This document shows positions 6,385 through 37,372 of a DNA stretch of 54,940 bases, piece by piece. A model generated the notes under the pieces. The model searched no databases. It was not told where the DNA came from and saw only the letters and a program-made list of their open reading frames with translations. The position numbers and the translations under genes are program-made. Each line of letters opens with the position of its first letter. Positions within the stretch are counted from its first letter, which is position 1. The stretch is from a virus (Duplodnaviria > Caudoviricetes): IMG/VR virus record IMGVR_UViG_3300027749_000137, positions 1 to 54,940 of that record. One strand, 5' to 3'.

Positions 6385-6774
6385 ATGCCGTACAAAGATT
6401 TAGCAAAACGCAAGGAAAAAGCCAAAGAATATTCGGCTAGGCATTATGCTGCCAACAGTACGGCCCAAAAAGTAAGGACAAAAGCAAGCAGGAAGGTAGG
6501 CAAGGAGAAATGGAACGAGTTCAAAGCAACCCTGATGTGCACCCAATGTGGGATATCACACCCCGCCGTTATAGATTTCCACCATCCCCCCGGTACAAAA
6601 GAATACAGTGTCCACAAATTGGCCCAAAATGGCCGGTACAAAAAAGCATATATAGAAGCCGCAAAATGTATAGTTTTGTGTTCTAACTGCCATCGACTTC
6701 ACCACCACAACGAACGTTTAGCCAAGAAAATGGGGGCCGAAGCCCCCATTTTGAGTGGGATAGTACCCAATTAA
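6385..6774 (+). CDS. HNH endonuclease
   Basis: CTQCG...IDFHH...C.VLCSNCHRLHH signature; antisense to the surrounding structural genes. Confidence 0.85.
   Translation: MPYKDLAKRKEKAKEYSARHYAANSTAQKVRTKASRKVGKEKWNEFKATLMCTQCGISHPAVIDFHHPPGTKEYSVHKLAQNGRYKKAYIEAAKCIVLCSNCHRLHHHNERLAKKMGAEAPILSGIVPN
6724..6752 (-). terminator. Intrinsic terminator
   Basis: Minus strand AAAATGGGGG-CTTCGG-CCCCCATTTTCTT with a cUUCGg loop; follows the acidic ORF. Confidence 0.75.
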
Positions 6775-7076
6775 GCAGCGGCTTCTTCCTCTTCGCCTTC
6801 GCCCTCTTCCTCTTCCTCTTCCAACTCAAACCAATCATCAGACTCTTCGTCGTAGTAGTACCAAACTTCGGCTTCCTCATCGTACCAGTAAGCTACGCCT
6901 TCATCGTCATACACCAGATCTTCTGTATCCTCTTCCATAACTAGCTCCTCTTCGTTTTCGTCCGCTGCTTGGACAACAGTTACAAAATCGTTCAGCAATG
7001 CAACTTTCCAAAATTTGTCAGTGGAAAACTCAATGCTATCCCCAAAACCAAAATCAATTGTCAATTTGAAATCCAT
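6771..7076 (-). CDS. Highly acidic small protein
   Basis: Start refined to MDFKLTIDFG by AAGGGG SD; C-terminal half is Asp/Glu-rich with spaced Tyr/Trp. Confidence 0.7.
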   Translation of the reverse strand: MDFKLTIDFGFGDSIEFSTDKFWKVALLNDFVTVVQAADENEEELVMEEDTEDLVYDDEGVAYWYDEEAEVWYYYDEESDDWFELEEEEEEGEGEEEEAAA

Positions 7077-7212
7077 AATTAGCCCCTTAAAAATGGTGCA
7101 GCACGGCGCTGCAAACACATCTTATAAGTGATTTATGACACTTTAAGTCATTAATGTCTGGTATTTAACCCTGCAAATTTAACGTCAAACTTTAAAATTA
7201 CATGGTTAGCCA

Positions 7213-7240
7213 ATAAAAAGGGCCCCCAAAGGGGCCCTTT
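7213..7240 (-). terminator. Intrinsic terminator after the major capsid gene
   Basis: Minus strand AAAGGGCCCC-TTTG-GGGGCCCTTTTT. Confidence 0.85.
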
Positions 7241-7268
7241 ACATCGGTCGAACCGAAAGGCTGATTTA

Positions 7269-8183
7269 TCAGGTCGAACCCGAGGAACCATAAATGCCAC
7301 GTGGATCGCTCCAGCCGAAGCTGTAACGCTCACGCGCCTTGTAGCGCACGTTGCCGGTGTCAAAGTCGCCTTCAAAGGCGGTTTTGATGGGCGAACGCTG
7401 GAACATTTTCAGACCGTTGGGCGCATCGGTCATGATGAACCATGCGTTTGTGTCGGTCAGATAGTGGTTCACTGCATAGCCTTGAGGAATCAAGCCCATC
7501 GATTTGATGGCATTGACATCATTGTCGGCAGTAGCAGTACGCAAAGTGGACTTCATCAGACGCTCGGCAGTGAACTGAAGTTCTTTCGGAACAATCATTT
7601 TCGTGCCCAAGACGGCAATTTTCAGGCCGCGCTCGTCGATGAAACTTGCAATGTCGATCAGACCTTGCTCCAAAGACGTTTCGTTCAGGTCAGCCTGAGT
7701 CGAAGGCGTATTTGCAAAGTTCTGAGCCAGTGCAGTGGGGTGGTTCAGGTTGCACAGAGAAACGCCGTCACCGCCGACATAGTTGCCGCCAGTAAATGCA
7801 TTGTTCAGTACAGACGCTGCCTTGACCTGCTTGGTATGCGACATCGAACGAGCCAGAGCTTTGGTGTAGCGACCAGAGAGGCGGTCATAGAGGTTGTCCT
7901 CTACAGCTTCCTCAGTCAGTGCAAACGCCATGGCGATGGTTTCGTGCGTATAACGAGCCGTGAACGATTCGTTCGCGGTGTCATATTGAACGCCAGCACC
8001 CTCAGTCTTGGTGGGAGCAGAACCGAAGCCAGTCAACATCACCTCTTCTTCAAACGCACGGTCAGAGGATTCGATTTCAAAAATCTCTTCGTGTTCGTTT
8101 TCGTAGCGGTTGTACTCCATGCCGAACAAGGCATTGAGTCCGGGCTCTAGCTCTTTTACGAGTTGTGAACGTGTAATTGCCAT
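7269..8183 (-). CDS. Major capsid protein (Mu gpT-like family)
   Basis: MAITRSQLVKELEPGLNALFG...GDFDTGNVRYKARERYSFGWSDPRG; followed by a strong terminator. Confidence 0.9.
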   Translation of the reverse strand: MAITRSQLVKELEPGLNALFGMEYNRYENEHEEIFEIESSDRAFEEEVMLTGFGSAPTKTEGAGVQYDTANESFTARYTHETIAMAFALTEEAVEDNLYDRLSGRYTKALARSMSHTKQVKAASVLNNAFTGGNYVGGDGVSLCNLNHPTALAQNFANTPSTQADLNETSLEQGLIDIASFIDERGLKIAVLGTKMIVPKELQFTAERLMKSTLRTATADNDVNAIKSMGLIPQGYAVNHYLTDTNAWFIMTDAPNGLKMFQRSPIKTAFEGDFDTGNVRYKARERYSFGWSDPRGIYGSSGST

Positions 8184-8185
8184 GA

Positions 8186-8773
8186 TTATGCTCCGTCTGC
8201 TGCAACGCCAACACTACCGTATTGATGCTGATTAAGTTTGACAACCACCTGTGCATAACTACCGAAGGCATTCGTCGGGATATCGTAGATGCCTACGATC
8301 TTGAACGTCAGCGCTGCGGTCTTAGCGATAGAGGAGGAACCAAGACTACCACTGGAAATACCGCTGTAGGTACTACCGGTAGTAGATGCAGTTGGGTCAG
8401 CATTCTTGCCAATGTTGGCTTGAGTAACAGAACCGTCTGCTTGGACAACAAACAATTGATTGGGATCGTCCAAAACCTCAGTCACGATGCTACCGATATT
8501 GGGAGTAACACTACCGGGGTAGTAGTTCTTCCATGTCGGCTTATCAGCGCGAGTGGGGTCATTGTATTGGCAACCGTTAAACACGCCCGTGGGGGCATTG
8601 TGGGTGGAAGCGTCATACTTGATGATGTATCCGTCATAGACAACAACGAGGTCGCCCTGATAGATAGCAGTGCCGTATCCACTTGCAATCAGATAGCCAT
8701 ACTGCTTTTGTGCACCAGTGGCTGAAAGATTACCTAGCGGACGCAGACCAAAAGGCTTATTCACATTTGCCAT
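8186..8773 (-). CDS. Capsid decoration/minor capsid protein
   Basis: MANVNKPFGLRP...IYQGDLV...GVFNGCQY...DDPNQLF; immediately upstream of the major capsid gene. Confidence 0.7.
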   Translation of the reverse strand: MANVNKPFGLRPLGNLSATGAQKQYGYLIASGYGTAIYQGDLVVVYDGYIIKYDASTHNAPTGVFNGCQYNDPTRADKPTWKNYYPGSVTPNIGSIVTEVLDDPNQLFVVQADGSVTQANIGKNADPTASTTGSTYSGISSGSLGSSSIAKTAALTFKIVGIYDIPTNAFGSYAQVVVKLNQHQYGSVGVAADGA

Positions 8774-8805
8774 TTGTAGCTCCTAAAAGATTAAAAGGTA
8801 CCGCC

Positions 8806-9279
8806 TTAGCGGGTTCCGAAAGTCGTTTTAGAACTTCTTTCGGGGGATTGGATGCGCATTGTAGAGTGTGCGTTTTCTCGCATCAACTCATTGTCTACTG
8901 CGGACAACTGGTCCCGGGCCTTTTGACGGAAATAAGCATTACGCTCTTCAGCCGTTTCATGTGGAATCTTGGCAAGGAGCAAGCCCCCTGTTGAAATTAC
9001 CCCTGCATGTTTACCTTCGTCAATCGTAGGTAACAGGCCTTGGTATTCCTCCGGCAATTCTTCAATGCGCACGAGTTCATAACCTTCGCGCAAGCTGCTG
9101 TACACATTTTGCTTGTCGACAAATCCATTGACTTCTGAACGAATCCAACGGTAGCCGAATCCCTCTGGGGCGGGTGGGGTGTCTAATTTAGAAGGCGGTG
9201 CCCATGGCTTGCGACGAGTTTCCTTTTCCCGAGTGGTGCGGGCGGCTCTATCGATGGTAAGTTTTTCGCTCATGATCAT
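8806..9279 (-). CDS. Conserved head-module protein
   Basis: WAPPSKLD.P.APEG..YRWIR, REGYE.V and GGLLLA motifs; lies between scaffold and capsid genes. Confidence 0.7.
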   Translation of the reverse strand: MIMSEKLTIDRAARTTREKETRRKPWAPPSKLDTPPAPEGFGYRWIRSEVNGFVDKQNVYSSLREGYELVRIEELPEEYQGLLPTIDEGKHAGVISTGGLLLAKIPHETAEERNAYFRQKARDQLSAVDNELMRENAHSTMRIQSPERSSKTTFGTR

Positions 9280-10933: not shown

Positions 10934-11065
10934 TTACGCAAGTTTTACCTTGTTAAACGCATCTTTTCGGTAGACATACGTCACTTTTGCCTTTTCCGCA
11001 CCTTTTTCTGCCTTTTTTGGCACCGGTTTTGGCATTTGTTTCATCTGTTTGGGCTTATTGGCCAT
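10934..11065 (-). CDS. Small basic protein (43 aa)
   Basis: Hand-translated MANKPKQMKQMPKPVPKKAEKGAEKAKVTYVYRKDAFNKVKLA; AGGAG SD inside the portal 3' end. Confidence 0.55.
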   Translation of the reverse strand: MANKPKQMKQMPKPVPKKAEKGAEKAKVTYVYRKDAFNKVKLA

Positions 11066-13385
11066 TTTTTACTCCTAATTGTTGCTGTTTTAGCATCAAA
11101 TTTGCCTGATCCATCTGGGATTTTTCCGCTTGACGGGCCTGATCCAACTGCAATTTGGATTGATCAATCTGGGTTTTGGCCTGATCGCTGGCAGCATTCT
11201 GCTGAAGCTCCTGTTTCTTCAAATCAATCAATGGGTCCGGGGGCGGATTACCTTGCAATTGGTTTTGCAAGTCCTTCACTTCCTTAAAGAACTGGGCTAC
11301 CTTAAGCGCAACCAATGCTTCACGCTGCAATGGGGACACCATTTGATCTGGGTCCGTGCCGTACTGCTTAAACAAGTCAGCTTCCACTGTCTCTTCTGCC
11401 TTTACCGTGATGTGATCAAAGATATGCTTTTGCAGAGTAACCGCCACGTTGGGCATTCCTTGCAGCATGGGCGACAAACCAAACATGATGTGCGTCATGA
11501 TGTGCGCATCATGCTGTTGGCCAGCAAAAGCTTTGAGCGGTGATCCATCCAATGCCTGTGCGTTTTCGCTTGCAGGATCTTTTGGCTTGTCCACGTTTTG
11601 CGTGTTTAAAATTGAATCAATATCCCGCACACCAATTGCTTGGTACATGCGGTAGTACGACTCGTACATATTGTGCATCTGTGGTGCGCTTTGGGCCAGT
11701 TGCAACTGGGTCTGCGCCATTGTGATGCGCTGCGCCACCGAGAAGATGTTGGGGTCAGACACCGGCAATACATCAATGCGGTCATCAAAGTCTGCGCGTT
11801 TAATAATGCGGGACTCGCCGGGGACATCGTACGGATAAGTATCGGGTAGAAACTCTCCAAAACCTTTGGCCAGCAACTGGAACTCCAGCTTCTGTGCGTA
11901 GTGCAAGCGCTTGTGGATGGCCGACATGACCGAGCTGCCTTTTTCCAGCAGCGCAATCGTGGTTCCAACAGCAGCATTTTGGTTGCTATCGCCAACTTGC
12001 ATGTCGGTGATCGAAGCCATACGGCGACCAGCATCCACGCAGAAACCAAGCAGTGCAAACAACGTTTGGCTTGGCTCTTTGTAAGGCAACGGTAGCAGGG
12101 ATGACTGCAACTCTGCGCCGCCTGCATCCATATCGCGGAACTCACCGGGCTGCAATGGCACGTCATCGTTCATGATACGTGCGCCCTTGGCCTTGAAGCC
12201 CGCTGGCAGGTTAGCAAATGTACCTGCATCGACCAACTGCTGCAATGCAGCCGAAGAAGTCTTGGACAAACCGCCTACCAAGTGCAAGAAGCCAAGGCCA
12301 TAAGCCCCCGGACCTTGCACCAAGACGTAGTGCACGTAGTACTGGACGCGCCGATGCTTCTTATCGCCCTCTTTCCAGTTGCGGCGGATGCCTACAACGT
12401 CACCAGATACCTCATCCAAGGTAATGATGTACGGCAGTTGGATGCCAGTCGGCTCCCCTTCTTCATCCTTGTCCTCAAACCCGGGCAGATCGTAATCAAT
12501 TTGGAATTCCAACAGGTTGACTTCTTCTGTATCAGGGCTGGGCTGGATGCCAGTAACTTTGTCCACAGCCTTTTGGATGATGCTGGGATTGTTGTTGGAC
12601 ATCGAAGCAGGTTCAGCAGAGTCTAAATACTGACCGCGAACCACGGCTTTGCGATACGCATTGGCGGACATTGGAACGCGATGCGTAATACGCTCGCATT
12701 CGCTCATGACTGAAGAACCGTTGTACGGGATGTACAGGTTGTCAGCCAGTACCAAAGCGCTAACCATGCGCCCTTTGTCCTCGTCGTAGTACACCTTCTT
12801 GAACGTCGATCCGCCGTAGCCTGTGTAGAACAGCAGTTGGTCAAACTCAGGTGTGTACTCTTCCATCACCGTAGTGATTTCGTAGTTCATAAAGTCGCGC
12901 ACGCGCTGCGCCTGCATCAGCTTCTCGCGGGTTTCCTTGCCCAACACTTGTGTGCGCACCGGGCCGTCAGCGGGCATCAGTTCCTTGAGCGCCTGCGCTT
13001 GGAATTGAACGATGCTTTCGGTTAGCAGAGGATGCTGCACGCCGCACGCGCCTTTGAACGGACGGGTACGCTCGTCCAAAGTAAAGCCAAGGAGCTTTAA
13101 ACCCTTGCTGTACTGATCCTCCCAGTCTTTGCGGGAAGATTTGTCAGCGTCAAACATGTCCAAAAGCTCTTGCGAGATGTTGGCCAGCACGGATTCCTCG
13201 ACCACCTCGGCAAGGTTGCTGTCAAAGGGGACTTCGGCATCGTCTTCTGCACCGATGTCAACCAGCACATCGCCGGTTTCCTTATCAAAAGAGATGTTGA
13301 CATCGGGCAATGGACCGTCATCGACCTCCACATCCATGCTGCCCGCAGGCAGATCTTCAGAGCGTATTGATTTTTCAACTGACAT
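11055..13385 (-). CDS. Portal protein
   Basis: 776 aa with HPLLTESIVQFQAQA, GSTFKKVY, DAGTFANLPAGFK and SAIHKRLH; Gln-rich C-terminal coil as in P22-like portals. Confidence 0.9.
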   Translation of the reverse strand: MSVEKSIRSEDLPAGSMDVEVDDGPLPDVNISFDKETGDVLVDIGAEDDAEVPFDSNLAEVVEESVLANISQELLDMFDADKSSRKDWEDQYSKGLKLLGFTLDERTRPFKGACGVQHPLLTESIVQFQAQALKELMPADGPVRTQVLGKETREKLMQAQRVRDFMNYEITTVMEEYTPEFDQLLFYTGYGGSTFKKVYYDEDKGRMVSALVLADNLYIPYNGSSVMSECERITHRVPMSANAYRKAVVRGQYLDSAEPASMSNNNPSIIQKAVDKVTGIQPSPDTEEVNLLEFQIDYDLPGFEDKDEEGEPTGIQLPYIITLDEVSGDVVGIRRNWKEGDKKHRRVQYYVHYVLVQGPGAYGLGFLHLVGGLSKTSSAALQQLVDAGTFANLPAGFKAKGARIMNDDVPLQPGEFRDMDAGGAELQSSLLPLPYKEPSQTLFALLGFCVDAGRRMASITDMQVGDSNQNAAVGTTIALLEKGSSVMSAIHKRLHYAQKLEFQLLAKGFGEFLPDTYPYDVPGESRIIKRADFDDRIDVLPVSDPNIFSVAQRITMAQTQLQLAQSAPQMHNMYESYYRMYQAIGVRDIDSILNTQNVDKPKDPASENAQALDGSPLKAFAGQQHDAHIMTHIMFGLSPMLQGMPNVAVTLQKHIFDHITVKAEETVEADLFKQYGTDPDQMVSPLQREALVALKVAQFFKEVKDLQNQLQGNPPPDPLIDLKKQELQQNAASDQAKTQIDQSKLQLDQARQAEKSQMDQANLMLKQQQLGVKNGQ

Positions 13386-13394
13386 GTTTTGTCC

Positions 13395-16300
13395 TTATAG
13401 GTAGCGGCGATTATCGTCCGATTGGCGTTCAACAGAACCGCCATGCCGGAATTTAACACCTTCTTTCAAGACTTTTGCAGCGGCTTCCGGGGTCCAAGCC
13501 ACACCGTGGACCAAGATTGGGTTGCCATCTTTGTCCTGAAGTTGGATATTACGGATTTCAAAACCTGCTTTTTCCCCACCAAGATCTTTTACAACCTGCT
13601 TAAGATTGATTGGTACTTTTTTCTCGTACAACTGCGACTGTTTTGATTCTGCCCCGGGGAAAGTAGCAAAACTGCCTCCGTCCCGCATGGTGGCTTGAAT
13701 GGAATTTTTCATCAACAGTTGTTGTTCCACAGAAGGGTTTGTCTCAAAACCATGGAAAGGTTGTTCCAGCTTATATGTGGGCGCTTCTCTTCCTGCTGCA
13801 TTTATGCGTTTTTGCAAAATAAGCTTACGTTGATCCAATTTAGCCAACTCTGCATTAATTTGCTCAGGATTTCCTTTAGGGGGATTTGCCCGCATCTGCC
13901 CAATTTTACTGGTTAAATCTTCATATTCTGCTTTATCCTTTTCAAGGCTTCCGCCTGCCGGACCTTTTTTTCGAATATCCTGTGCAAGGTCAGATTGCAA
14001 TTCATGGTAGTGTCTGCCCTTAACATTACTCCCCATGCCCGGGATAGCCGCTTCATGCTCCGAGTAACGGGAAAAACCAATTGGATGCGCCTGACCTGCG
14101 ATAGTTCCGTGCTGGCCACCATATGGCGCTACATCCTCTAATGATGCTTCTAGCCTCCGTACTTCAGGGGTAATGTCCCGTTGTATGCCTACTTTTAAGT
14201 CATTGTATTTTTGCAGGATAGGGTCAAGTGCATCGTTTAATTGTTGTTTAAATTCTGGTTGTGCACGAAATAACTCATGCGTGGGAATTCCTTCAGGTCT
14301 ACCGAAAACGTCAGGCTTACTAGAAATTACAGCCTCTAGGTCTGGGAGTTTTGCAGGATCAACCCCTACCGCTTTTAACCTATCTATGGCCTCTTGTCCT
14401 ATCGCACGGGTTGCGGCTTGGTGGGCTAAAAGTTCTCTTTCAGCCAAAGGAACTGTGGACCCCTCCATACCTTTATCTATGGCGTTATATATTTCCCAAT
14501 ATGGCCTATTACTTTTGGCATCTGTATATATGACAGGGAACATAAGTCCCCTTGCTGCATCCGATATCTCCTTGGTTTTTTGCGATATCTCATTTATATC
14601 GTTTGTGTATGCATTTACTTTATTCAGTAAAGACTTACTGGCAGGAAGATCCTTTAGTAAAGGAGATGAGCCTATTAAAGATTTAATCTTATCTACATCT
14701 ACACGAAAGTTTCCATTAATGTCTGTGTTGAAATTAACAAAATCTTTTATGGCACTGATTGTGCTTTTTGCATCTTTTGCAGAAGCTGCCACTTCAGGAG
14801 GCATGTCTAAGTACAGATTTGTTGTACCTAATTGCTTACCAAACACATTGTCTTGGCTTTCCCAGAACTTAGACCCAGTAGTATCTACCGAAAGATCCTC
14901 CGATTTAAACCGTTGGGGAGAATAAGTTTTGCCAAGCGTTTCTTTTAGTTGTTCAGGGGTTATCTTGGCATTTGCAGGGATATCCGCAAGCGCTGCTTCC
15001 AAACGCTGGACATCGTACTCCCGCAAATTTTTTTTAACTTGATTGATAAGCTGTTGTTTCTGCACAGGACCGGGCAGTTGGTCTACAAGTTGGTCCAATC
15101 TTCCAACAAACGGGCGATCAGCCGGTGTTGAAATTTCTTCGGGGGGTGCAACTGGAACAACTTCTGGTAGGGCAGGTGTTCTTTGCGCTGCTTGTTCCAT
15201 TGCCGCTGCTTCGGCTGGCGCAGGGATAAAGTCGTCTATGGCTTGATGACCTTCTGGAGCCAACGCTACTTCCCCCCATCCGGCTGGGTTGGGTGCGACT
15301 TCCGGTGCGACTTGAGCAGCCGGGGATGGGCGGGCTACTCCCGCCGCATCCAACCGACGATTCATTTCCCGAATTGCTTGGAGTTGACGATCTATATCCT
15401 CATTCATCCGAGCAACAGCGGCTAAGTTTTCACTTGTCGGTGCGGCTTTGGCTGCGACTTGTGCAGTCTTCAATCCGTTGTATGCATTCTTCAGCATTTC
15501 TGCCGCAGTAGCACCCGTGCGCATTGCACCGCGAACCACGGAGGCAGGGTTGAGCAACCCGGCTCCCATCTCCCCCATCATTCGGAAACCTTGGTCCTGT
15601 GGGTCTTTGGAATCCTCTGGGCGGATACCATATTTGGTGGCTTGCTCCTTGATCCAATCACTTCCCATCACGGGCTTTTGTTCTTTGTAACCAGCCGGAC
15701 GCATGGCCATGGATACTAAATCAACAGGTGCACCTGCGAGATCGTAGGGGAGATCCAATGCTCCTTTGCCAATGTTTTCTACGTTACGTACTGTTCCTTT
15801 GGCCACCCCCTTGAGCATCTTGGCTGCTTCTGAAGGATTGAAGTCCTTGCCCTTGGCCATGGTGTCCGAGGTGATCGGACCGCTGTCGGCTACCCCCATG
15901 GGATCTTGGAAGTAATCCGTGCTCTCTCCGGTAGCAGGAGAACCATCGGCGCGAGATATGGGAGTCACGGCAAACGGGCTTTGCTGGTTAATACCAGTAG
16001 GCATCAAGTTGTTTGGCAAGCCTTGGTTACTGCCAAAACCAGAATTAAATGGCATTGGTGCAACAGTGGCAGCCCGCATAGCAATCATTGTTGGCGTAGG
16101 TGTTGCCAAATTGTTATACATATTGGCATTGTTATACGGCGCAGCAACAGGAGCGCTGTTCACATAAGCAAACGGATCAACAGGATGGTTGTACGCTTGG
16201 TACGGAACATATTGTGTGCTTGGTACTTCTACGGGTCCCATGGTTATCACTGACCCCGTTGTACCTGAAGTAGTTCTACTGGTAGTTGTTGGAGCAACAG

Positions 16301-18149
16301 TTGTAGTGTTTCCTCCAGTGACAATGGGAGGCGACCAAATAGATGTGGTCCACGGAGGGGCAATTGTGGTCCACACATAAGTACTTGTAAGTGTCGGTGT
16401 CGATGTCGGGGCTATCGTAGAAGTAGAAGTAGAAGTAGATGTTAGCGTGGGCGTAGACGTATTGGTTGTCTCTGGAAATGCTGTTGGCTCTAACGTAACT
16501 ACTGGCGGCAAAGTAAATACACTTATCCACGGATCAGTAGTTTCACGCTTACCCGTAATGATTACTTGGGATAACGTATTGGTTTGAGTAGGGGTTGGAG
16601 TTCCCGTATTAGTTGTCTCTGGAAATGCCGTTGGCTTTAACGTAACTACTGGTGGCAAAGTAAATACACTTATCCACGGATCTGTTGTTTCACGCTTGCC
16701 CGTAATGATTACTTGGGATAACGTATTGGTCTGCGTAGGGGTTGGGCTTGCCGTATTAGTCGTCTCTGGAAATGCCGTTGCCTGTAACGTAACTACTGGC
16801 GGCAAAGTAAACGCAGTCAACCACGGATCAGTAGTCTCTTTTTTACCTACTACTGTCACCGGAGCAAACACAGTTCCGCCAGTATCCACTACTGTGTTAT
16901 TTAAATTTGTTCCATTTTGATTCTGCAACTGGCTAAGCAAGAAGGGATCAACCCCTTCTTTGTTGCCTGTAACTGTCACCGTACCCAAATCAGTACCATT
17001 CCCACCTACAGTGGAATCAACACCATTCCCGCCTACAGTGGAATCAGTACCTACGATCTGGCTGATCAAAGTATTAAGATCGGTAGCCGCATTGGTATTA
17101 GAACTGTTGGCATCTCCAACAACAGGTATCTGATTTAAAAACGCTTGCAAGCTATTGGCGTCTGCCCCAGTCAGCAACCCAGCATTCTGATAGTTGGCTG
17201 CGGTATCCGGATTACCATAGGTATATCCGTTGTCGCCAAAGGTGTATCCGCCACCATTTTCGCTATTTCCAAAGTTGTTCCCAAAATCACTGCCGCCGCC
17301 ACTGCTTATCCAACCGCCGTACTCTCCGCTATCCCCTACGTTGGCAGAATCAGCAAATGTACCTATAGCCGCGTGCACCGGACCACCGGGCGGCATCTTC
17401 ACTTCCCCACCCTTAGCCATGGTCCTCGGAGCTTGCTCCTCGGGGAATGGACTGCGCACAGCCAAATCAACACTGGCCAGCGCCGGAGGTTTCACCTGAG
17501 CCAGCCACTGCGATGCTACGCTGGGTTCGGTGCGCTCCTTATAAGCCTGCACCGTTGGATCATCCTCGTCAGAGTTATCCGCCAAGAACGACAGAGCCAT
17601 CGCGGCTTGGTAGTTTGGTCCGAGGGCCGCGAGCATCGCAGCTTTATCTTCTGTCGGCTGTTCAGCCTGCGCCATCCGCGCAGCACCGGCCACGGGCCGA
17701 GGAGCGGGGGCCGCTTGATCCATAGGACTGACAGCAGGTTTTTGCGCTACCTGCTGGCCCAGCTTGGAGCCAGTAACCTTCTCAACGTACTTGGCTGTCT
17801 CATCGGGGACCGCGCCCTTCTTACCGCTGGCCACCCACTTATCAACATTACCCGGGCCCCAGTTGTAAGCCGCAGCCGCCAAGGTTGGATCGTTGTTGTA
17901 CTTTTGCAGCATGGCCGCTGCGTAATCCTTGCCCACCCGTGCCCGCTCTTCAGGAGATTTATTGCGCGCCGGTTCTACCCCAAAACCCGGATCAAGAAAG
18001 GTTTTATCCAAAACCTGCATCTCACCCTTGGCAGTACCATGCTTAGTCTTAGGACCTTGCAACAATTTACCATTGGCATCATAGCGGCGCTTGTTGCTTT
18101 CCGCTTCCATGATTTTGTCAATAAATTCCTGATTCGGATCTTTAGCCAT
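13395..18149 (-). CDS. Large virion/ejection protein: N-terminal lytic transglycosylase, Thr/Pro-rich middle, C-terminal HELQSD domain
   Basis: SLT motifs (MEAES, AKGEMQV, AAYNWGPG, ET.KYV); 49-aa repeats; ELQSD motif typical of large polyvalent phage proteins. Confidence 0.75.
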   Translation of the reverse strand: MAKDPNQEFIDKIMEAESNKRRYDANGKLLQGPKTKHGTAKGEMQVLDKTFLDPGFGVEPARNKSPEERARVGKDYAAAMLQKYNNDPTLAAAAYNWGPGNVDKWVASGKKGAVPDETAKYVEKVTGSKLGQQVAQKPAVSPMDQAAPAPRPVAGAARMAQAEQPTEDKAAMLAALGPNYQAAMALSFLADNSDEDDPTVQAYKERTEPSVASQWLAQVKPPALASVDLAVRSPFPEEQAPRTMAKGGEVKMPPGGPVHAAIGTFADSANVGDSGEYGGWISSGGGSDFGNNFGNSENGGGYTFGDNGYTYGNPDTAANYQNAGLLTGADANSLQAFLNQIPVVGDANSSNTNAATDLNTLISQIVGTDSTVGGNGVDSTVGGNGTDLGTVTVTGNKEGVDPFLLSQLQNQNGTNLNNTVVDTGGTVFAPVTVVGKKETTDPWLTAFTLPPVVTLQATAFPETTNTASPTPTQTNTLSQVIITGKRETTDPWISVFTLPPVVTLKPTAFPETTNTGTPTPTQTNTLSQVIITGKRETTDPWISVFTLPPVVTLEPTAFPETTNTSTPTLTSTSTSTSTIAPTSTPTLTSTYVWTTIAPPWTTSIWSPPIVTGGNTTTVAPTTTSRTTSGTTGSVITMGPVEVPSTQYVPYQAYNHPVDPFAYVNSAPVAAPYNNANMYNNLATPTPTMIAMRAATVAPMPFNSGFGSNQGLPNNLMPTGINQQSPFAVTPISRADGSPATGESTDYFQDPMGVADSGPITSDTMAKGKDFNPSEAAKMLKGVAKGTVRNVENIGKGALDLPYDLAGAPVDLVSMAMRPAGYKEQKPVMGSDWIKEQATKYGIRPEDSKDPQDQGFRMMGEMGAGLLNPASVVRGAMRTGATAAEMLKNAYNGLKTAQVAAKAAPTSENLAAVARMNEDIDRQLQAIREMNRRLDAAGVARPSPAAQVAPEVAPNPAGWGEVALAPEGHQAIDDFIPAPAEAAAMEQAAQRTPALPEVVPVAPPEEISTPADRPFVGRLDQLVDQLPGPVQKQQLINQVKKNLREYDVQRLEAALADIPANAKITPEQLKETLGKTYSPQRFKSEDLSVDTTGSKFWESQDNVFGKQLGTTNLYLDMPPEVAASAKDAKSTISAIKDFVNFNTDINGNFRVDVDKIKSLIGSSPLLKDLPASKSLLNKVNAYTNDINEISQKTKEISDAARGLMFPVIYTDAKSNRPYWEIYNAIDKGMEGSTVPLAERELLAHQAATRAIGQEAIDRLKAVGVDPAKLPDLEAVISSKPDVFGRPEGIPTHELFRAQPEFKQQLNDALDPILQKYNDLKVGIQRDITPEVRRLEASLEDVAPYGGQHGTIAGQAHPIGFSRYSEHEAAIPGMGSNVKGRHYHELQSDLAQDIRKKGPAGGSLEKDKAEYEDLTSKIGQMRANPPKGNPEQINAELAKLDQRKLILQKRINAAGREAPTYKLEQPFHGFETNPSVEQQLLMKNSIQATMRDGGSFATFPGAESKQSQLYEKKVPINLKQVVKDLGGEKAGFEIRNIQLQDKDGNPILVHGVAWTPEAAAKVLKEGVKFRHGGSVERQSDDNRRYL
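16450..16870 (-). repeat. About three copies of a 147-bp (49-aa) tandem repeat
   Basis: CCACGGATC recurs at 16527, 16674 and 16821 (period 147); a (GTAGAA)n microsatellite lies at 16417-16440. Confidence 0.9.
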
Positions 18150-18196: not shown

Positions 18197-19666
18197 TCAA
18201 TAATACTCAAGGGCTCCTAGCTCTACCTTTTCCTCATCCTGTTCATCAGAATCCAAAGCAATAAAATTCCCTTGACGGAATCTTGTCCAAGCCATAACCG
18301 TTGAGTCCACCTGATCGTCATGCGCCCCATTAGGAAACGATGCACATTCTTCAACAAGCTCTTGCGCCCACTCCAAATCCGCCGGATACCAGATCATTCC
18401 CGATTCCAACAAGGGAGCTACCGCATTAGCACGCGATATCTTATCCTGCCCGGTCCGTCTGCCGCCGGGTGAGTACATCGTAACCGGAATCCCTATGCGG
18501 CGCAATTCCTGTTGCAATGGCGTGCCAGTAGCCTTGGCCTCGATCAAAACATTATCGGGATTCCAATAAAGGTACTCGGACCGCGCAACGCGCTTCAATT
18601 CAGGAAAGTCCCACCGCCCGCGCTTCACGTTGAGCAAGATCAGATTGGGGCCCGAGTCGGCAGAAGGGGTGAACACGCCCCACGTCGAGATGACAGAGTA
18701 GTCCGCCGTCTCCTTCTTGGAGTACGCAGTATCGTAGGACTGGATGATGTATTCGCAGGCCGGGGGTTCATCGTAAGTCCACTTGCGCCACCAATCGCGC
18801 TTCAAGATTGCGCCTTCATCGTTGGTGGGCTGCTGCTGCCACTGGGCATTCCACTTCTTTAAACCAATGCTGACTTTGACTTTTTCTAGCTCATCTATAT
18901 GCCAATACTCGGGCCAAAGTGCGCGGCCCGAGGGAAGAATGGCAGGAAATTCCAAGATCTCCCATTGATCTGACTTTAACTGCCCTTGCTGCCTTAGTAA
19001 GCGCCCTGTAAGGTCATCGGTCTTCCAGCGGGTATTAATGATGATGATCGAGCCGTTGGGCTGGAGACGCTGACGGGGGCCCGAGGTATACCACTCCCAA
19101 GTGTTCTCCATGGCTGTCTCGGACAGAGCGTCCTGCTCGTCCAAGATATCGTCCAGAATGACAATGTCACCGCCGCGCCCGGTCATCGCGCCGCCCTTAC
19201 CGATGAAATAGGCTTCCCCACCACCCTTCGTGTTCCACCGACCAGCAGCCTTGCTGTCAGCAGAAAGGCCCACGGACGGGAAAAGTTCCTTGTACTTATC
19301 TTCCTCGACAAGGTTTCGGATCATCCGGCCAAAGCGTTGGGCCAGCTCGGCAGTATGGGAGCCGACAATGAGTTTAGAAGCGGGGATCTTGCCCATCAGG
19401 TAGGCGGGGAACAGATAACTGCCCATCTGTGACTTGCCGTGGCGCGGGGGCATGGCGATCATGAGCCGCTTGCATTTGCCCTCGATCACCCGGTCAAAAG
19501 CCTTGGCAATCCGCTTGTGGTGTTCCCCGATGATGATCTCGGGCCAGACGTAGCGGCAAAACTCTAGGAAGTTGGTGGTGGCCTTGTCCCGGATTTCAAT
19601 TTGACGTAGGCGTAGCTCCAGCAGGAGGCGTTTATGTTCGACATCGGGGGCTTCATTTGGGGCCAT
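18197..19666 (-). CDS. terL: Terminase large subunit
   Basis: MPPRHGKS Walker A, ILDD Walker B, SYDTA and HDDQVDS nuclease motifs; start uncertain (19666 preferred). Confidence 0.93.
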   Translation of the reverse strand: MAPNEAPDVEHKRLLLELRLRQIEIRDKATTNFLEFCRYVWPEIIIGEHHKRIAKAFDRVIEGKCKRLMIAMPPRHGKSQMGSYLFPAYLMGKIPASKLIVGSHTAELAQRFGRMIRNLVEEDKYKELFPSVGLSADSKAAGRWNTKGGGEAYFIGKGGAMTGRGGDIVILDDILDEQDALSETAMENTWEWYTSGPRQRLQPNGSIIIINTRWKTDDLTGRLLRQQGQLKSDQWEILEFPAILPSGRALWPEYWHIDELEKVKVSIGLKKWNAQWQQQPTNDEGAILKRDWWRKWTYDEPPACEYIIQSYDTAYSKKETADYSVISTWGVFTPSADSGPNLILLNVKRGRWDFPELKRVARSEYLYWNPDNVLIEAKATGTPLQQELRRIGIPVTMYSPGGRRTGQDKISRANAVAPLLESGMIWYPADLEWAQELVEECASFPNGAHDDQVDSTVMAWTRFRQGNFIALDSDEQDEEKVELGALEYY

Positions 19667-19860
19667 GGGCAGACTCGTAAGGTTCTGAATTTTTATAGTA
19701 TACCCCCACCCTTGCCTTTTTAAAAACAAGGGGGTGGGGTCGATAACTCCCGATTACCCTGTTATTTGTCTAAAACAGGGGCGAAGCTGACGCTGAGCAA
19801 GCCGGTGCCTTTATGGCCCTCCCCCCTCTAAGAAAGACAGAGACAGACAGTCAGAGAGTT

Positions 19861-21308: not shown

Positions 21309-22316
21309 TTAAGCGCTAAGCAATTCCACTGCTCGATTTTTAAGCGCTGCGCCAGTGCCAAACCATGCCGATTCAAGGCGCGTATTGTCGGACCTTCCGC
21401 GCTCATGATCCACCAATTCGGTGACAGCATTAAGCATGGCCCAGCGACTACCAGCAACCCCGTCGATATCGGAACCGATAGCGGCTCCGTTGAATAATTG
21501 CAGCACCCGCTTATAGGCGCGGCTTTCTGTGATATCGATCCGGCCTGTGTGGTAGGGTTTGAGCAATTCGGCAACAAAAGAATCGGCCTCCGCTGCACTC
21601 ATGGTTTCCGCTGCCAATTGGCGGCTCTGAACAATAAAGCGCTCGAATTGATTCGCCACAATCCCCAATTGCAGGCGGACGGTGTCGGCGTCGAAGCGCT
21701 CACTATGCAATACGCGAATGGCACTTTTCAGATATCCCTTTTCGGTTTCCGCTTCGCCCTTCACGGCCTGCCCGTTGGAATAGCCGCCCACTGCCGCCGT
21801 GATTGTGTTATTGCACACCACGCGAATTGCAGTGAATTTCGCAATTGTCGCCATGGTTCCATCGTAGGACGTGCCCAGCAATAGGTACGGCTTGACTAGG
21901 TCCCCGTCTACCACTGGTGCCGCTTCGCCCACGCTCGCCAGTGCCCAAACCCTGCGCCCGTAACTAAGGGCTCCGGCTGTCTCCAATTGAAAACCGCCAA
22001 GCGCTACTAAGTCAGAGAAAAAGCCCATTATTTCGGCGGGCTGAACAACGTTATAGCCCTTCGATACTACCGCCAGCGCTGCGCCGGTATCGCTCCGGTG
22101 CAGTACTTTACGCTCCGGCCATGCTTGGGGCTCTGTTGCCGCTGCTGTCTGAAATAGAACGGGGCTCTCCAATACGCTGTAAGACAAGCCAGCTTCGCGG
22201 GTCCAAGTGGGGATATCTGCCCCCGCTGTCAGTGCCTGCCCCAGTCCGTGCCACGGGGTTTTACCTGCGTACGCAATCGCTGCGCTGCCGGTGGTGGTGT
22301 CGATCATATGTGCCAT
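21309..22316 (-). CDS. DUF932-family phage/plasmid protein
   Basis: MAHMI...TPWHGLG, ETAGAL..GRRVWALA, SYDGT, RVVCNNT and W.MLNAVTE..DH motifs. Confidence 0.85.
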   Translation of the reverse strand: MAHMIDTTTGSAAIAYAGKTPWHGLGQALTAGADIPTWTREAGLSYSVLESPVLFQTAAATEPQAWPERKVLHRSDTGAALAVVSKGYNVVQPAEIMGFFSDLVALGGFQLETAGALSYGRRVWALASVGEAAPVVDGDLVKPYLLLGTSYDGTMATIAKFTAIRVVCNNTITAAVGGYSNGQAVKGEAETEKGYLKSAIRVLHSERFDADTVRLQLGIVANQFERFIVQSRQLAAETMSAAEADSFVAELLKPYHTGRIDITESRAYKRVLQLFNGAAIGSDIDGVAGSRWAMLNAVTELVDHERGRSDNTRLESAWFGTGAALKNRAVELLSA

Positions 22317-22414: not shown

Positions 22415-22478
22415 CGAATTTATCCAGCACCCAGCTAATCCCTATTATGACGGCCAGCGCCACGAAGGCCATTATCAT
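22410..22478 (-). CDS. 22-aa hydrophobic peptide
   Basis: MIMAFVALAVIIGISWVLDKFD; ATGA coupling to the upstream gene. Confidence 0.45.
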   Translation of the reverse strand: MIMAFVALAVIIGISWVLDKFD

Positions 22479-23173
22479 GCTGCCGCCTTTCCGCAATCCC
22501 CTGCGATATGGTGCCGCAACATGCTGCCACGGGGCAAACCATGCGCGAAGGCGCGGACGGCCTGCGCATCATTGGCGGCCCCTTTCTTTTTAGTAGCATG
22601 CCACTGTATAGCAGTGGGGCCCGATGCTGCATAGCAACCCCCTTCGGCATCGGTGCCGACTCTCTTTTTTCCGGTACCGTGCCCAACGAACACCACCACA
22701 TAATCACGTTGACCACGTGCGCATAGTGGGGAACCATTCCCGCACTGCTGGCATGTGAATGAATCGGACAATTCGGCAGGGCACCGGACAAACCCGATAC
22801 CGTGGAATTTTCGGGGCCATTGGTCCGCGCTATCGTGGGGCGCTGCGTAAACGGCAGGCCTTCCAAGCTCTACAGCGCGTGCCGCATCTTGCATGGTGTC
22901 GCAGCTTGCATTAAATACGGTTTTGCCTTCGGCAGGCAGTGGTAAGGCTTCGGCCTGAAAATGGCTGTAGGTCCAAGCCAAGCCCCCACGGGGAACCGCA
23001 TCATAAACGGCCTGCATATATTCGGCATCGACTAGGTCCGTGCCGGTTTCGCTTTTCGGGTGCAGCTTGCACGTTTTGGGGCACGTGCCATAAGTCTCAT
23101 GTTCGCCTGCGCGATAAGTAACGGCAATGGGGCCGGTTTTGCTGTTGCTGCTGGTTTGTACTGTCTTGAGCAT
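22475..23173 (-). CDS. Cys-rich conserved phage protein (gp88-like, inferred)
   Basis: SNSKTGPI, TCPKTC, WTYSH, RCPA...CQQC...LC and RHHIAGD motifs; start set by the AGAAAGGATA SD. Confidence 0.7.
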   Translation of the reverse strand: MLKTVQTSSNSKTGPIAVTYRAGEHETYGTCPKTCKLHPKSETGTDLVDAEYMQAVYDAVPRGGLAWTYSHFQAEALPLPAEGKTVFNASCDTMQDAARAVELGRPAVYAAPHDSADQWPRKFHGIGFVRCPAELSDSFTCQQCGNGSPLCARGQRDYVVVFVGHGTGKKRVGTDAEGGCYAASGPTAIQWHATKKKGAANDAQAVRAFAHGLPRGSMLRHHIAGDCGKAAA

Positions 23174-23219
23174 GATGTTATCCTTTCTGATATGCCGGAA
23201 CCGTTCCGGCATGGTTTGA

Positions 23220-28581: not shown

Positions 28582-28814
28582 AAACAATTATTCATGTGAA
28601 TCAGCACGTCATAAAATCCAATGCAAAAAATGGAACAAATGAGCCGGTGTTAACAGTAAAAACGTACAAGGAAAACCGGTATGCACATGAAGCCGTGATC
28701 CTCGGTCCATGCAAAGTGGTCTATTCTCCTGACAGAGCACTTTCGTGCGGGGCAAAGGTGTGGATTGAGACGCATGCAGAGGTTGAACTTAAATTAGAGG
28801 AGCAAACAGCTTGA
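28578..28814 (+). CDS. Conserved phage protein
   Basis: IIHVNQHVIK.N...EPVLTVKT...LSCGAKVWIET. Confidence 0.75.
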   Translation: MKTIIHVNQHVIKSNAKNGTNEPVLTVKTYKENRYAHEAVILGPCKVVYSPDRALSCGAKVWIETHAEVELKLEEQTA

Positions 28815-29815
28815 CCATATTCGTGAGCCTCGCTTCTTACTGCGACAACCTTTTGGAGCAGACCATGACAGAAGCCATGACCAAGGCTAAGTACCCAAGG
28901 GATATCCGTTTTGGTGTGGTGGAACAGCAATACGTTGAGAAACGTCTGCGCTCTGAAATTGTCAAGAATCCGCAGGTCCGTTATGTCGGGATTGATATCC
29001 GCGAGGCGCGGGGCGCGTGCTGGGCACGGGCTTTGGCGATGAGTTTATACAATGACGAGGACTACTTTTTGCAAGTGGATGCACACACGGTATTTGATGA
29101 GGATTGGGATGAGAAACTGATCAAATCCATAGAACATTGTGGGAAGAAATCAGCCAAGCCTTTGTTGTCTAGTTATCCTCCTTCTTTTGAAATTAAGGAC
29201 AAACAGATCATCCTTCAGTACGCCCCCAAGTGCATGGCCACATCATGGGTAGTGGACAAAGAATGGCCTAATGAGCCTAACGGTAATGACATTGTCTTGC
29301 ATTTCAGGGCGTACGTTTATAACGATGTTACGGAGCCTGTCAAAGGGTTTCATGTTGCTGGGGGAATGATTTTTGCGCATGGGAAGTTTGTGTACGAAGT
29401 ACCGTATGACCCGCATTTGTATTTCCAAGGCGAAGAACAAAATATCTCGGTCAGGGCCTATACGCATGGATGGGACATTTACCATACCCCTGATGTTCCT
29501 GTTTATCACCTGTATGCCATGAATAAAGAAGGGCAAGAAGGAACGCCTGATATTGAACGTAATCAGAGGGAAACGCACTGGGTAGAAGACAAGGACAAAA
29601 TGCGTAAGGAGCGATGGTGGGACCTTGATAAAAAGTCAAGGACTAGGCTATCTGCTTTACTGCATAAAGGTGAGAATCTTGGTGCGTATGGGCTGGGAAA
29701 AGAACGCACATTAAAGGACTATGCGAAGTTTTCTGGGATTGATTACGTCAACAAAAAGCTTATGCCTAATGCATGGTTGCCTTCTGAACGTCCTGCGACT
29801 AAGAAAAAGAAATGA
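28811..29815 (+). CDS. GT60/Gnt1-like GlcNAc glycosyltransferase
   Basis: TIFVSLASY.D, ARGACWAR, FLQVDAHT.F..DWD, VPYDP.LYF.GEE...R.YT.GWD and YHLY: the GT-A fold pattern of the GlcNAc-transferase family. Confidence 0.8.
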   Translation: MTIFVSLASYCDNLLEQTMTEAMTKAKYPRDIRFGVVEQQYVEKRLRSEIVKNPQVRYVGIDIREARGACWARALAMSLYNDEDYFLQVDAHTVFDEDWDEKLIKSIEHCGKKSAKPLLSSYPPSFEIKDKQIILQYAPKCMATSWVVDKEWPNEPNGNDIVLHFRAYVYNDVTEPVKGFHVAGGMIFAHGKFVYEVPYDPHLYFQGEEQNISVRAYTHGWDIYHTPDVPVYHLYAMNKEGQEGTPDIERNQRETHWVEDKDKMRKERWWDLDKKSRTRLSALLHKGENLGAYGLGKERTLKDYAKFSGIDYVNKKLMPNAWLPSERPATKKKK

Positions 29816-35591: not shown

Positions 35592-35840
35592 TCAAGCGTG
35601 GGGCTCAAGCCAGAAGAAGTCGCTTGGCCAAACAAGCAGCGGAGTATCGGGGCCCATATAGGCACTTTCGATATTGTATTCAATAAACTCCCGCGCCTCT
35701 TCTACGCTCATGCCGTCTCGCTTTTGCAGGATATAGCGAATGGCATCGGCGTTATATATAAGAACATGTATACGTTCATTGCCGTTCCACGTAAAGCATG
35801 GGCCAATGATGGCCTGATCGTATCCATCTAACCTTTTCAA
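35592..35840 (-). CDS. Conserved small phage protein
   Basis: LDGYDQAIIG...EEAREFIEYNIESAYMGPDTP. Confidence 0.75.
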   Translation of the reverse strand: MKRLDGYDQAIIGPCFTWNGNERIHVLIYNADAIRYILQKRDGMSVEEAREFIEYNIESAYMGPDTPLLVWPSDFFWLEPHA

Positions 35841-37372
35841 AATGGGCTCCCTTCTGTGCGGGTGGTGTGTGTTTCAAAAGGAGCATCCTGTTTCTCAAAG
35901 CAAGGAATCCTCCAGCAGCGCGTGGTCCGTGATTTAAGCAGCAAGGATATGGGCTCGCCACCGAGGTCCCTGATCCGTTGTGCAATCTTGGGAGCAGTCA
36001 GCCCCATGAAATTGTTGCGCTTTAGGTGGGACATCAGGTCCTTCATCCTGAAGTAAGTCTTGGCCTCAGAATCATCATTCCACGGACGGCCCATGAGTAT
36101 TTCATCGCGGTCCAATGCCTGCTGCATGTGGGTAGTGAACTCTTCCAGCAGATCCATAAATTGACCCGTAACGCTGGTATCTTCGCTAGCCTCAGTAATT
36201 TGCTCAGTCTCCACCATTTCTTTGAGCAGTGCATTGAGTAAATTCTCCCAGTCTTGCTTGCGCAGCGTGGGCGGCAGCAGGTTCAGACGCTCAAGGCAAG
36301 CTTTCTGAAAAGCCATCTGATTGAACAGGTTGTCAGTTTCCAGCTCGACCCTACGGCCATTGATATCAAGGAACCACAGCGGCGGCTCGCTAGCGTACTT
36401 AGACAAAGAACTGATCTTTGGTGCGTCAGGGCCGTTGCCCCCGATCCCAAACTTGCGTGTCCGGCACAGGCCAGAATTGCAAAAGGAATTGAGCGGCATG
36501 TCCTTACACTTGTACATGTAATCTTTTTTGTTCAATTGCTTTAGGATCACCTGCACTTCATTGTTAGGCAGCGGTGGGGATACATACTTGTAGTTGTACT
36601 CGGCCAGCTTGTCTTCCCAACCAGCGGGAGCCAGCTTCTTTAAGTAGATCCCGATATTAAACAGGCCGTTGTTACGTGTGCCTTCAGGAAAGCCTTGAGC
36701 GCAAAGAGCCTGTAGGCAGGGCGGACCATCCTTGATAGGGCTGTCCGGCTGCTTTGGGGGCTCAGGGAAGGCCAGTGGAGATGTCTGCACATTGGCTTCG
36801 TACAGCGTAAAAAATTCCTCCAGCGAAGCGGCAGATCCGTCTGCATTAAAGGCATAACGTGTTCCGTTATCACCAGCAAAATAAGGCAGGTTTAGGAAGT
36901 TGCCGGTATCCCCGCGCTCAACCAAAATCTCGGCCTGCTTGGGAAAGATCTCACGCCCTGCCTCACCCAACAATGCTGCTGAGGTTTGCAGGTAGTGCTG
37001 CATGTCGGCAGCCGGTATTGGCTCCCGAACAAATAAGAAGACGTGTGCGCCGCCGGACTTGCTGCGGCAGACAACTAACGGGAGTTTGAGCGCAGCAATT
37101 CGCTGCACAAGGCCCAAATGGTCAAGGGGATACTGATCAATATCAATGCAACCCCATATACAACTATTATCAGCGCGAATAGGAATGACCCCAAGACTAG
37201 GCTCAACGCCGTCAAGATGCTTGATCCAGAGGTCCTCTGTTGGCGGCTTTCGGACCACCGTGGCTTTACCTGCTTGTTTTCCATCACCGCGCTCCGATTT
37301 GATTACGTATGTCCCATAGGCAATATCCAGCCCGCTGAATATTGCCTGAAATTTTTCAAGTTGATCTTGCAT
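35837..37372 (-). CDS. AEP-superfamily primase with C-terminal PriCT-like region
   Basis: WGCIDID, RSKSGGAH, GNFLNLPY, PPCL and EGTRNNGLF motifs. Confidence 0.8.
   Translation of the reverse strand: MQDQLEKFQAIFSGLDIAYGTYVIKSERGDGKQAGKATVVRKPPTEDLWIKHLDGVEPSLGVIPIRADNSCIWGCIDIDQYPLDHLGLVQRIAALKLPLVVCRSKSGGAHVFLFVREPIPAADMQHYLQTSAALLGEAGREIFPKQAEILVERGDTGNFLNLPYFAGDNGTRYAFNADGSAASLEEFFTLYEANVQTSPLAFPEPPKQPDSPIKDGPPCLQALCAQGFPEGTRNNGLFNIGIYLKKLAPAGWEDKLAEYNYKYVSPPLPNNEVQVILKQLNKKDYMYKCKDMPLNSFCNSGLCRTRKFGIGGNGPDAPKISSLSKYASEPPLWFLDINGRRVELETDNLFNQMAFQKACLERLNLLPPTLRKQDWENLLNALLKEMVETEQITEASEDTSVTGQFMDLLEEFTTHMQQALDRDEILMGRPWNDDSEAKTYFRMKDLMSHLKRNNFMGLTAPKIAQRIRDLGGEPISLLLKSRTTRCWRIPCFEKQDAPFETHTTRTEGSPF

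Follow-up and report, generated by a model that had tools for sequence, protein, structure and literature searches.

Short-tailed phages bring very large proteins and the leading part of their DNA across the Gram-negative envelope, largely by means, and with a power source, still to be worked out. TonB boxes are the known route by which foreign proteins, the bacteriocins, tap the proton-motive force (PMF) from outside the cell. The virus record IMGVR_UViG_3300027749_000137 of IMG/VR raises the question of whether a phage protein carries such boxes itself. The record is linear, 54,940 bases long, and of 89% estimated completeness, and it was analyzed whole (the window). Its gene at 13395..18149 on the minus strand lies between the large terminase and portal genes and encodes a protein of 1584 amino acids (aa), P0001, with an SLT domain at its N terminus, a variable insert, and a C-terminal domain that is conserved. 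A preliminary description of the window had pointed out four TonB-box-like motifs in the middle of this protein. We find that the motif match to TonB boxes is beyond chance and statistically strong at the level of sequence. The reading that we tentatively favor, with a little less than even confidence, is that the motifs are host-matched TonB-box mimics in a fast-evolving cargo insert of an injected polyvalent protein.

Likeness of the motifs to Burkholderiales TonB boxes

A regular expression run on the translated open reading frame (ORF) 13395..18149 located all four motifs. Motif 1, LGTVTVTGNKEGVDPF, occupies aa 388-403 (16941..16988, on the minus strand like every feature of P0001), and its scoring 10-mer starts at aa 387. 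Motif 2, FAPVTVVGKKETTDPW, occupies aa 428-443 (16821..16868), has F in place of L/M, and is the weakest. Motif 3, LSQVIITGKRETTDPW, is found at aa 477-492 (16674..16721), and the same LSQVIITGKRETTDPW recurs as motif 4 at aa 526-541 (16527..16574) with a box identical to that of motif 3. The boxes are spaced by 40, 49, and 49 residues. The range first given for the motifs, 16540..16995, covers motifs 1-3, but motif 4 extends 13 nucleotides (nt) past it to 16527. The DP[FW] reported after each motif is present in all four. The Thr/Pro linkers described between them are found between copies 2, 3, and 4, whereas the linker between copies 1 and 2 is rich in Gln/Asn/Gly/Thr.

TonB boxes for comparison were taken from the transporters of three Burkholderiales genomes (Cupriavidus, Achromobacter, and Janthinobacterium) with 106 Plug-domain matches, of which 70 were used and 36 left out. 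A Gibbs sampler with no prior pattern was applied to the 60-75 residues upstream of Plug in 30 Burkholderiales transporters and yielded a 30-box matrix with the consensus x[LM]xxVxVx[GA]x. The sites were located 20-41 aa before Plug in 28 of the 30 proteins; the other two sites, oddly placed, stayed in the matrix. Motifs 1-4 score 13.3, 10.7, 14.3, and 14.3 bits on this matrix. An independent test set of 40 further transporters outside the training set had a median best upstream score of 17.2 bits; 34 of the 40 reached at least 10.7 bits, 28 at least 13.3 bits, and 24 at least 14.3 bits. The larger 70-box matrix was evaluated by leave-one-out, and the real boxes had a median of 18.1 bits with quartiles of 13.5-21.1. 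On this matrix motif 1 scores 15.3 bits (37th percentile of the real boxes), motif 2 scores 11.1 bits (11th percentile), and motifs 3 and 4 score 13.9 bits each (29th percentile).

The background was scanned with the 70-box matrix at a threshold of 13 bits. None of 168,890 positions in ORFs of at least 150 aa from 74 viral loci reached the threshold, and neither did any of 92,090 positions in 71 other homologues of P0001, a total of 260,980 background positions. In contrast, the P0001 insert (aa 250-730) holds three matches of at least 13 bits. Among 5000 composition-preserving shuffles of this insert, three or more such matches arose in none and two or more in eight. The insert of P0002, the only close relative of P0001 (1565 aa, 85% identical overall), gave three or more in 1 of 5000 shuffles. 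The reversed inserts peaked at 6.1 bits for P0001 and 10.6 bits for P0002. These data uphold the likeness to the TonB box that the preliminary description had proposed.

The pattern itself allows a second explanation, the main rival of the first, which we consider possible though somewhat less likely. A strand-forming spacer repeat unrelated to TonB would make the Thr/Pro-rich region an extended linker that spans the periplasm or lies inside the head. Its short hydrophobic strands would pair with one another, or between protein copies, as beta-hairpins or sheets, and the TonB-box likeness would follow incidentally from a 'polar, L, two residues, V-x-V/I-x, Gly/Ala turn' arrangement. The background set included beta-rich capsid and tail proteins, and its lack of any position of at least 13 bits argues against this explanation. 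The low ceiling of the reversed P0001 insert argues in the same direction.

The box types of two other groups were examined for clade specificity. A sphingomonad matrix was built from 30 transporters of the 85 Plug matches in two genomes; its consensus is [DE]IVVT[GA][ST][RK], and its leave-one-out median is 24.0 bits. On this matrix no phage motif scores above 11.4 bits, and the motifs fall at the 3rd-13th percentile. Boxes of E. coli K-12 were read for 9 of 11 Plug matches, two partial matches having been dropped. On the Burkholderiales matrix these boxes peak at 12.5 bits, and none of the nine regions reaches 13 bits. Of the three groups compared, the box type that the phage motifs fit is that of Burkholderiales and not that of sphingomonads or E. 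coli. A purely structural repeat would not predict a match to the box type of one clade and not to those of two others, which is a further argument against the spacer. The TonB-box consensus itself differs sharply between Burkholderiales, sphingomonads, and E. coli K-12, and the box type could serve as a sequence-based host clue for phage-borne look-alikes. The tonB gene of Cupriavidus adjoins exbB and exbD, and 26 Burkholderiales TonB C-terminal domains were aligned.

The host lead came from a scan of genome collections. The closest relative found there is 58% identical to P0001 over aa 1-257 and is encoded on a 4.7-kb contig binned in a Burkholderiaceae metagenome-assembled genome (MAG). The scan gave 20 matches, and all but this first one cover the SLT domain only. 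Judged by their genus names, 14 of the 20 are matches that we take to be from Betaproteobacteria. The phage motifs outscore genuine E. coli boxes on the Burkholderiales matrix, which agrees with this independent host lead. A Burkholderiales host, as guessed in the preliminary description, is thus consistent with an independent but weak lead, the MAG contig. The motifs match the box consensus of Burkholderiales transporters, and Burkholderiales as the host clade is a lead only.

The repeat unit, its relatives, and the variable insert

Motifs 2-4 are carried by a 147-nt (49-aa) tandem repeat of 2.6 copies at 16458..16835 (Tandem Repeats Finder score 616, 90% matches). Because all three lie in this one repeat, they are products of duplication, and the four motifs cannot count as independent. 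Between units 2 and 3, the first 12 codons contain 8 non-synonymous changes and the following 37 codons contain 7. Between units 3 and 4, 11 codons differ synonymously and 5 non-synonymously, and the first 12 codons contain one synonymous and no non-synonymous change. The second half of the unit (W, then ..LPPVV.L) is better conserved than the box within P0001, and its outline (Trp, then a ..LPPV.. strand) recurs in P0002. Both observations favor the spacer. The better-kept tail therefore suggests that the unit has a role beyond presenting the box, and the 49-aa unit may do more than present a box. A second box per unit, 'TLPPVVTL..', was considered; it scored 11.0 and 9.2 bits on the 30-box matrix but 8.1 bits on the 70-box matrix and was dropped.

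P0002 bears on whether the motifs are under selection. Its flanks are 80-98% identical to those of P0001, whereas identity falls to 20-45%, with insertions and deletions, over aa 250-700. P0002 has three boxes of different sequence that score 18.3, 15.0, and 14.6 bits on the 70-box matrix. They align globally with boxes 2, 3, and 4 of P0001, and the L, V, V/I, and G/A positions are kept while the other positions differ. The retention of the consensus positions despite 20-45% identity is the best sign of selection on them. An aromatic residue 7-12 positions after each box is also conserved, and it lies outside the TonB-box definition.

The motifs are not a property of the family as a whole. None of the 71 other homologues reaches 13 bits on the 70-box matrix. 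A family-conserved Pro-rich segment of the 'QLPVVTPVAAP' type (aa 993 in P0001) was examined as a candidate box and rejected; it scored 12.7 bits in some homologues, and none reached 13 bits with the 70-box matrix. Conservation of the motifs in homologues therefore holds for the consensus positions between P0001 and P0002; it does not extend to the other 71 proteins, and within P0001 no part of the unit varies as much as the box. The motifs occur in 2 of 73 family proteins and are therefore not needed for the core role of the family.

Searches with the repeat returned next to nothing. NCBIfam gave no family for a 91-aa stretch of the repeat. A phmmer search of 1.84 billion representative proteins with aa 385-575 gave only two matches (E ~1e-5), both to unrelated repeat proteins. 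A word-indexed search with aa 380-600 gave none at E<=10 in a 5.8-billion-protein collection limited to proteins of 871-2772 aa. There was no match to the repeat at E<=1 by tblastn against 50,697 phage records. Scans for close relatives of the repeat detected one locus in viral contigs and one weak locus in metagenome contigs. The absence of relatives of the unit from the two large protein searches is expected of lineage-specific low-complexity sequence and is compatible with the spacer.

The motifs lie in a lineage-specific insert at aa 250-730 (15960..17402) that is first Gly/Asn/Ser-rich and then Thr/Pro-rich. The site is an insertion hot spot of the family and is bounded by '..MAxGG' (aa ~249) and 'VxRAxGSPxxGE' (aa 731). 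Among 32 aligned members the insert ranges from 0 to 574 aa, is absent in 7, and contains an HExxH motif in 8; the HExxH sequence may mark a metallopeptidase. The hot spot looks like a swap site for cargo modules. A Thr+Pro-rich insert is found only in P0001 (fraction 0.29) and P0002 (0.34) among the 32 members, and the lack of such an insert in most of the family is another point for the spacer. The region just upstream of the boxes (16995-17366, aa 262-385) is Gly/Asn/Ser-rich with scattered aromatic residues, and the end of this stretch contains a tandem repeat (16988-17051, 27 nt x2.4) of 'DSTVGGNG'-type units. Its composition presumably resembles that of bacteriocin translocation regions.

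The middle of P0001 had been called disordered, and this description was put to a weak test. The combined fraction of G/P/S/T/N/Q is 0.45-0.75 over aa 241-760. A single-sequence AlphaFold2 model of aa 375-600 has a mean predicted local distance difference test (pLDDT) of 38.5 with no residue above 70, although an orphan sequence would model poorly anyway. The model contains weak hairpins that pair strands at each unit, as the spacer would have it, but the low pLDDT leaves a defined fold unsupported. The possibility raised in the preliminary description that the repeats fold as an autonomous domain found no support, as the same model gives no confident fold for this segment.

The carrier protein and its place among the head genes

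A word-indexed search identified 72 homologues of P0001 at E<=0.001 among 7998 scored candidates, and all are metagenomic or uncultured-virus proteins. Of 360 candidate stretches from an IMG/VR scan with the family alignment, 269 were relatives, and 74 loci were kept for gene-order counts. The features found throughout the family are the N-terminal SLT domain, several short linear motifs, and the C-terminal domain at aa 1000-1584.

The SLT lytic transglycosylase domain is located at aa 7-111 (17817..18131) and matches Pfam PF01464 with E 3.3e-08 and 33.6 bits against a cut-off of 21.3. The preliminary assignment of a transglycosylase to the 1584-aa protein was correct, and the gene stands among head genes. 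SLT is the sole Pfam domain of P0001, and the PHROG matches all fall within aa 7-148. The family profile matched solved structures of the SLT70 type at E 7.1e-09, and the profile search of the PDB returned SLT structures only. The AES and AYNWGPGN stretches are present in the family consensus of the SLT domain. No membrane-spanning segments were found in P0001, where the top 19-residue Kyte-Doolittle mean is 1.13.

The conserved C-terminal domain (aa 1000-1584, 13398..15152) was confidently modeled with AlphaFold2 from 39 sequences with a pLDDT of 82.7 and a predicted template modeling score (pTM) of 0.72. Foldseek gave no match to the PDB at E<=0.001, and the protein Atlas gave unnamed viral clusters only. 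BFVD returned uncharacterized phage proteins and weak rows for the 'Large polyvalent protein associated domain' (E 0.0098 and worse). A GNAT-like identity was considered from the best VIA-align Z scores of 9.3 and 9.1, a level the tool calls common, and was not assigned. Among the families that Foldseek and VIA-align listed for this domain there was no phage ejection protein. The domain contains a nearly invariant 'GRHxHELQSD' near 13986-14012 that has a catalytic or metal-binding look.

The gene order on the minus strand is the large terminase subunit (TerL), P0001, the portal, and more head genes to the major capsid protein. TerL (18197..19729, minus strand) is directly upstream of P0001 and was identified by phrog_38 (E 9e-116) and Pfam Terminase_6N/6C. 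The portal gene (11055..13385, minus strand) starts 10 nt past the P0001 stop and was identified by phrog_1216 (E 4e-39); its product is 63.2% identical to the protein annotated as portal in phage DSL-LC04. The major capsid protein (7269-8183, minus strand) ends the run of head genes downstream of the portal. The order TerL, P0001-family gene, portal is kept in all 39 related loci, of the 74, in which both neighbors are visible, and in those 39 of 39 loci ~10 nt separate the stop of the family gene from the portal start. The portal is 39-45% identical to the portals of pelagiphages HTVC027P/023P and roseophages CRP-901/902, which we take to be short-tailed phages. The nearest named phage is DSL-LC04, a metagenome-assembled freshwater phage. 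Its terminase-portal slot holds an 825-aa protein with a PcfJ domain (6484-8961 of the DSL-LC04 locus) that is unrelated to P0001. A 13-residue 'PIxRAxGSPxxGE' (15924-15962, aa 730-742) is common to P0001 and this slot-mate, and pairwise comparison of the two proteins detected no homology outside the 13-residue motif. The shared motif may be a docking or processing signal for occupants of the terminase-portal slot.

This arrangement bears on a third explanation, in which the motifs add a beta-strand to a partner other than TonB. The partner could belong to the host, as a periplasmic or outer-membrane protein like those of the Tol, Lpt, and Bam systems, or to the phage, as the portal or the inner capsid wall in a packaging role. 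The gene abuts the portal gene in all 39 loci, and the conserved linear motifs that flank the insert, such as the RAxGSPxxGE shared with the DSL-LC04 slot-mate, show that linear motifs are used for other contacts. The conserved aromatic residue beyond each box, which the TonB-box definition does not include, also fits a different partner. However, no motif of another partner was found to fit, the match is specific to transporter TonB boxes, and docking to the portal or capsid should be family-wide rather than confined to 2 of 73 proteins. We regard this explanation as improbable.

The position of the gene matches that of the phage polyvalent proteins. Iyer et al. 2017 (PMC5512222) predict packaging and injection for polyvalent proteins encoded beside portal-terminase genes, which often have wall-cutting domains. 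P0001 is a large multi-domain protein among the virion genes of a portal-terminase phage, as specified for this class. It shares with these proteins a very large size, a multi-module build, a place beside the portal and terminase genes, a wall-cutting domain, and a variable module slot. LPD23 is present in one distant homologue, P0072, and PcfJ in the DSL-LC04 slot-mate. In contrast to the polyvalent proteins, P0001 has no Pfam LPD domain, and its module consists of linear motifs and not of an enzyme. The word TonB is absent from the main text of PMC5512222.

A second comparison is with a class of internal virion proteins. The T7 gp16-type proteins of short-tailed phages exceed 1000 aa and have an N-terminal lytic transglycosylase. 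P0001 shares with gp16 the size of more than 1000 aa, the N-terminal transglycosylase, and a presumably short-tailed lineage. The differences are that no sequence relation was detected beyond the SLT domain and that the P0001 gene lies between terminase and portal and not after the tail genes. To our knowledge, TonB boxes have not been described for T7 gp16.

A possible role of the motifs at infection

These results suggest how TonB-box mimics could work in an injected protein. We infer packaging of P0001 into the head, beside the portal, and its injection at infection. The N-terminal transglycosylase would reach the periplasm and cut the cell wall, and the insert would follow and expose its boxes in the periplasm. 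Each box would add a beta-strand to the C-terminal domain of host TonB, like the boxes of transporters and bacteriocins. TonB, powered by ExbBD and the PMF, would then pull or tether P0001, and the pulling could help the remaining ~1000 residues, and possibly a channel built by them, through the envelope. As a side effect, or as an alternative benefit, TonB would be titrated away from the host transporters. Because the substrate of the SLT domain is peptidoglycan, the N terminus at least must reach the periplasm. The presence of SLT on the same chain as the boxes, together with the head-gene context, is the reason to place the boxes in the periplasm. The support for the mimic interpretation comes from the sequence match, the clade specificity, the retention of the motifs in P0002, and the genomic and domain context. 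Taken on these sequence comparisons, the interpretation is plausible, clade-consistent, and confined to two known proteins.

The same boxes would permit a decoy function, in which they jam TonB early in infection and block TonB-dependent uptake, or superinfection by TonB-dependent phages or bacteriocins. The sequence evidence for a decoy is the same as for entry, and several boxes per chain would raise their local concentration. However, the few copies injected per infection would be in poor stoichiometry to cellular TonB, and expression from the genome after entry would make more sense for a decoy. We consider this function very improbable.

The closest models for the proposed entry role are the host transporters and the bacteriocins. 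The phage motifs share the consensus positions of Burkholderiales transporter boxes and fall within their score range, at the 11th-51st percentile. They lie in a segment without confident structure and, like several real boxes, are often followed by a basic residue. They differ from transporter boxes in that they are phage-encoded, are not N-terminal to a Plug-barrel, and number four in tandem compared to one; the likeness is one of sequence alone. According to PMC12927319, bacteriocins have a TonB box in a disordered N terminus and are pulled in by TonB-ExbBD. Like P0001 in the proposed role, the bacteriocins of that source (pyocin S2 and klebicin C) are foreign proteins with a host-type box in a disordered stretch that cross the outer membrane and act in the periplasm or deeper. 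PMF-driven pulling is the proposed pay-off in both cases. The bacteriocins described there have one box near the N terminus compared to the four boxes at aa 387-536 of P0001 that follow a folded enzyme domain. P0001 would also cross the outer membrane via the phage tail and not through a transporter or TolC.

The number of boxes suggests an extension of the entry role. TonB dislodges ~50-60 residues of the transporter plug, and how a single box supports the import of much longer polypeptides is not understood, as stated in PMC12927319. The 40/49/49 spacing stands beside this plug length, and it is a speculation by analogy that the array would allow repeated pulls. The boxes at 40-49-residue spacing would be successive handles by which TonB-ExbBD winches P0001, with an entry channel or the leading DNA, stepwise through the envelope. 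We rate this extension as unlikely. If it were true, P0001 would be the first virus-encoded TonB ligand.

Other phages use host energy-transducing envelope systems at entry. T1 and phi80 depend on TonB via the host receptor FhuA, and the box is on the receptor. The filamentous-phage g3p binds TolA of the Tol system by a folded domain. P0001 would share the use of such a system with T1/phi80 and g3p and would differ in carrying the box on the phage protein itself. For a TonB-box linear motif, both the carrier and the setting would be new. A full-text literature search, with most subscription journals outside its coverage, found no virion, ejection, or tail protein of a phage that was reported to have a TonB box; the papers that it brought up concern phage T5 and FhuA, bacteriocins, HasB, FusB, and SusCD. 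If the mimic interpretation is true, phages hijack the TonB motor with a ligand of their own and not through the box of a receptor, which is a directly testable idea, and linear-motif mimicry is added to the repertoire of phage polyvalent proteins. If the region is instead a spacer, it is a lineage-specific one of little wider interest.

Several observations weigh against TonB mimicry. Since copies 3 and 4 go back to a recent duplication, P0001 has only two or three independent matches, and two independent matches arise in 8 of the 5000 shuffles. In a scan of some 250,000 windows, a few such cases could occur by chance. The motifs are present in only 2 of the 73 family proteins. Among the copies in P0001, the box diverges more than the rest of the 49-aa unit, and the segment after it, 'TTDPW..FTLPPVVTL..TAFPETTNT', is better preserved. 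Gly at the end of a strand also suits a beta-hairpin repeat, and hairpins are what the low-confidence AlphaFold2 model draws. The genomes for the Burkholderiales matrices were chosen after the weak host lead, and PMC10611076 gives a predicted Pseudomonas host for DSL-LC04. Finally, the packaging, ejection, and exit orientation of P0001 are all inferred.

Outside the head-gene run, two large ORFs on the minus strand (41907-45296 and 45293-47689; 1129 and 798 aa) had no Pfam or PHROG match and presumably belong to a tail/ejection module. They are followed by a gene at 47696-48766 with a weak match to a 'DNA ejection protein' PHROG and by 48769-50937, which has tape-measure-like C-termini. No tRNA genes were found in the record. 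A replication/early region on the minus strand encodes a DUF932 protein (21309-22316), a DUF7227 protein (22475-23212), and a Pam3 gp34-like protein (37477-38244). Further genes of the record encode a family A DNA polymerase, a UvrD-type helicase, and, at 35837-37372, an AEP-type primase. The plus strand encodes a glycosyltransferase at 28811-29815 (Pfam 'GlcNAc' family PF11397, E 6e-59) in the same phage that encodes the Thr/Pro-rich P0001.

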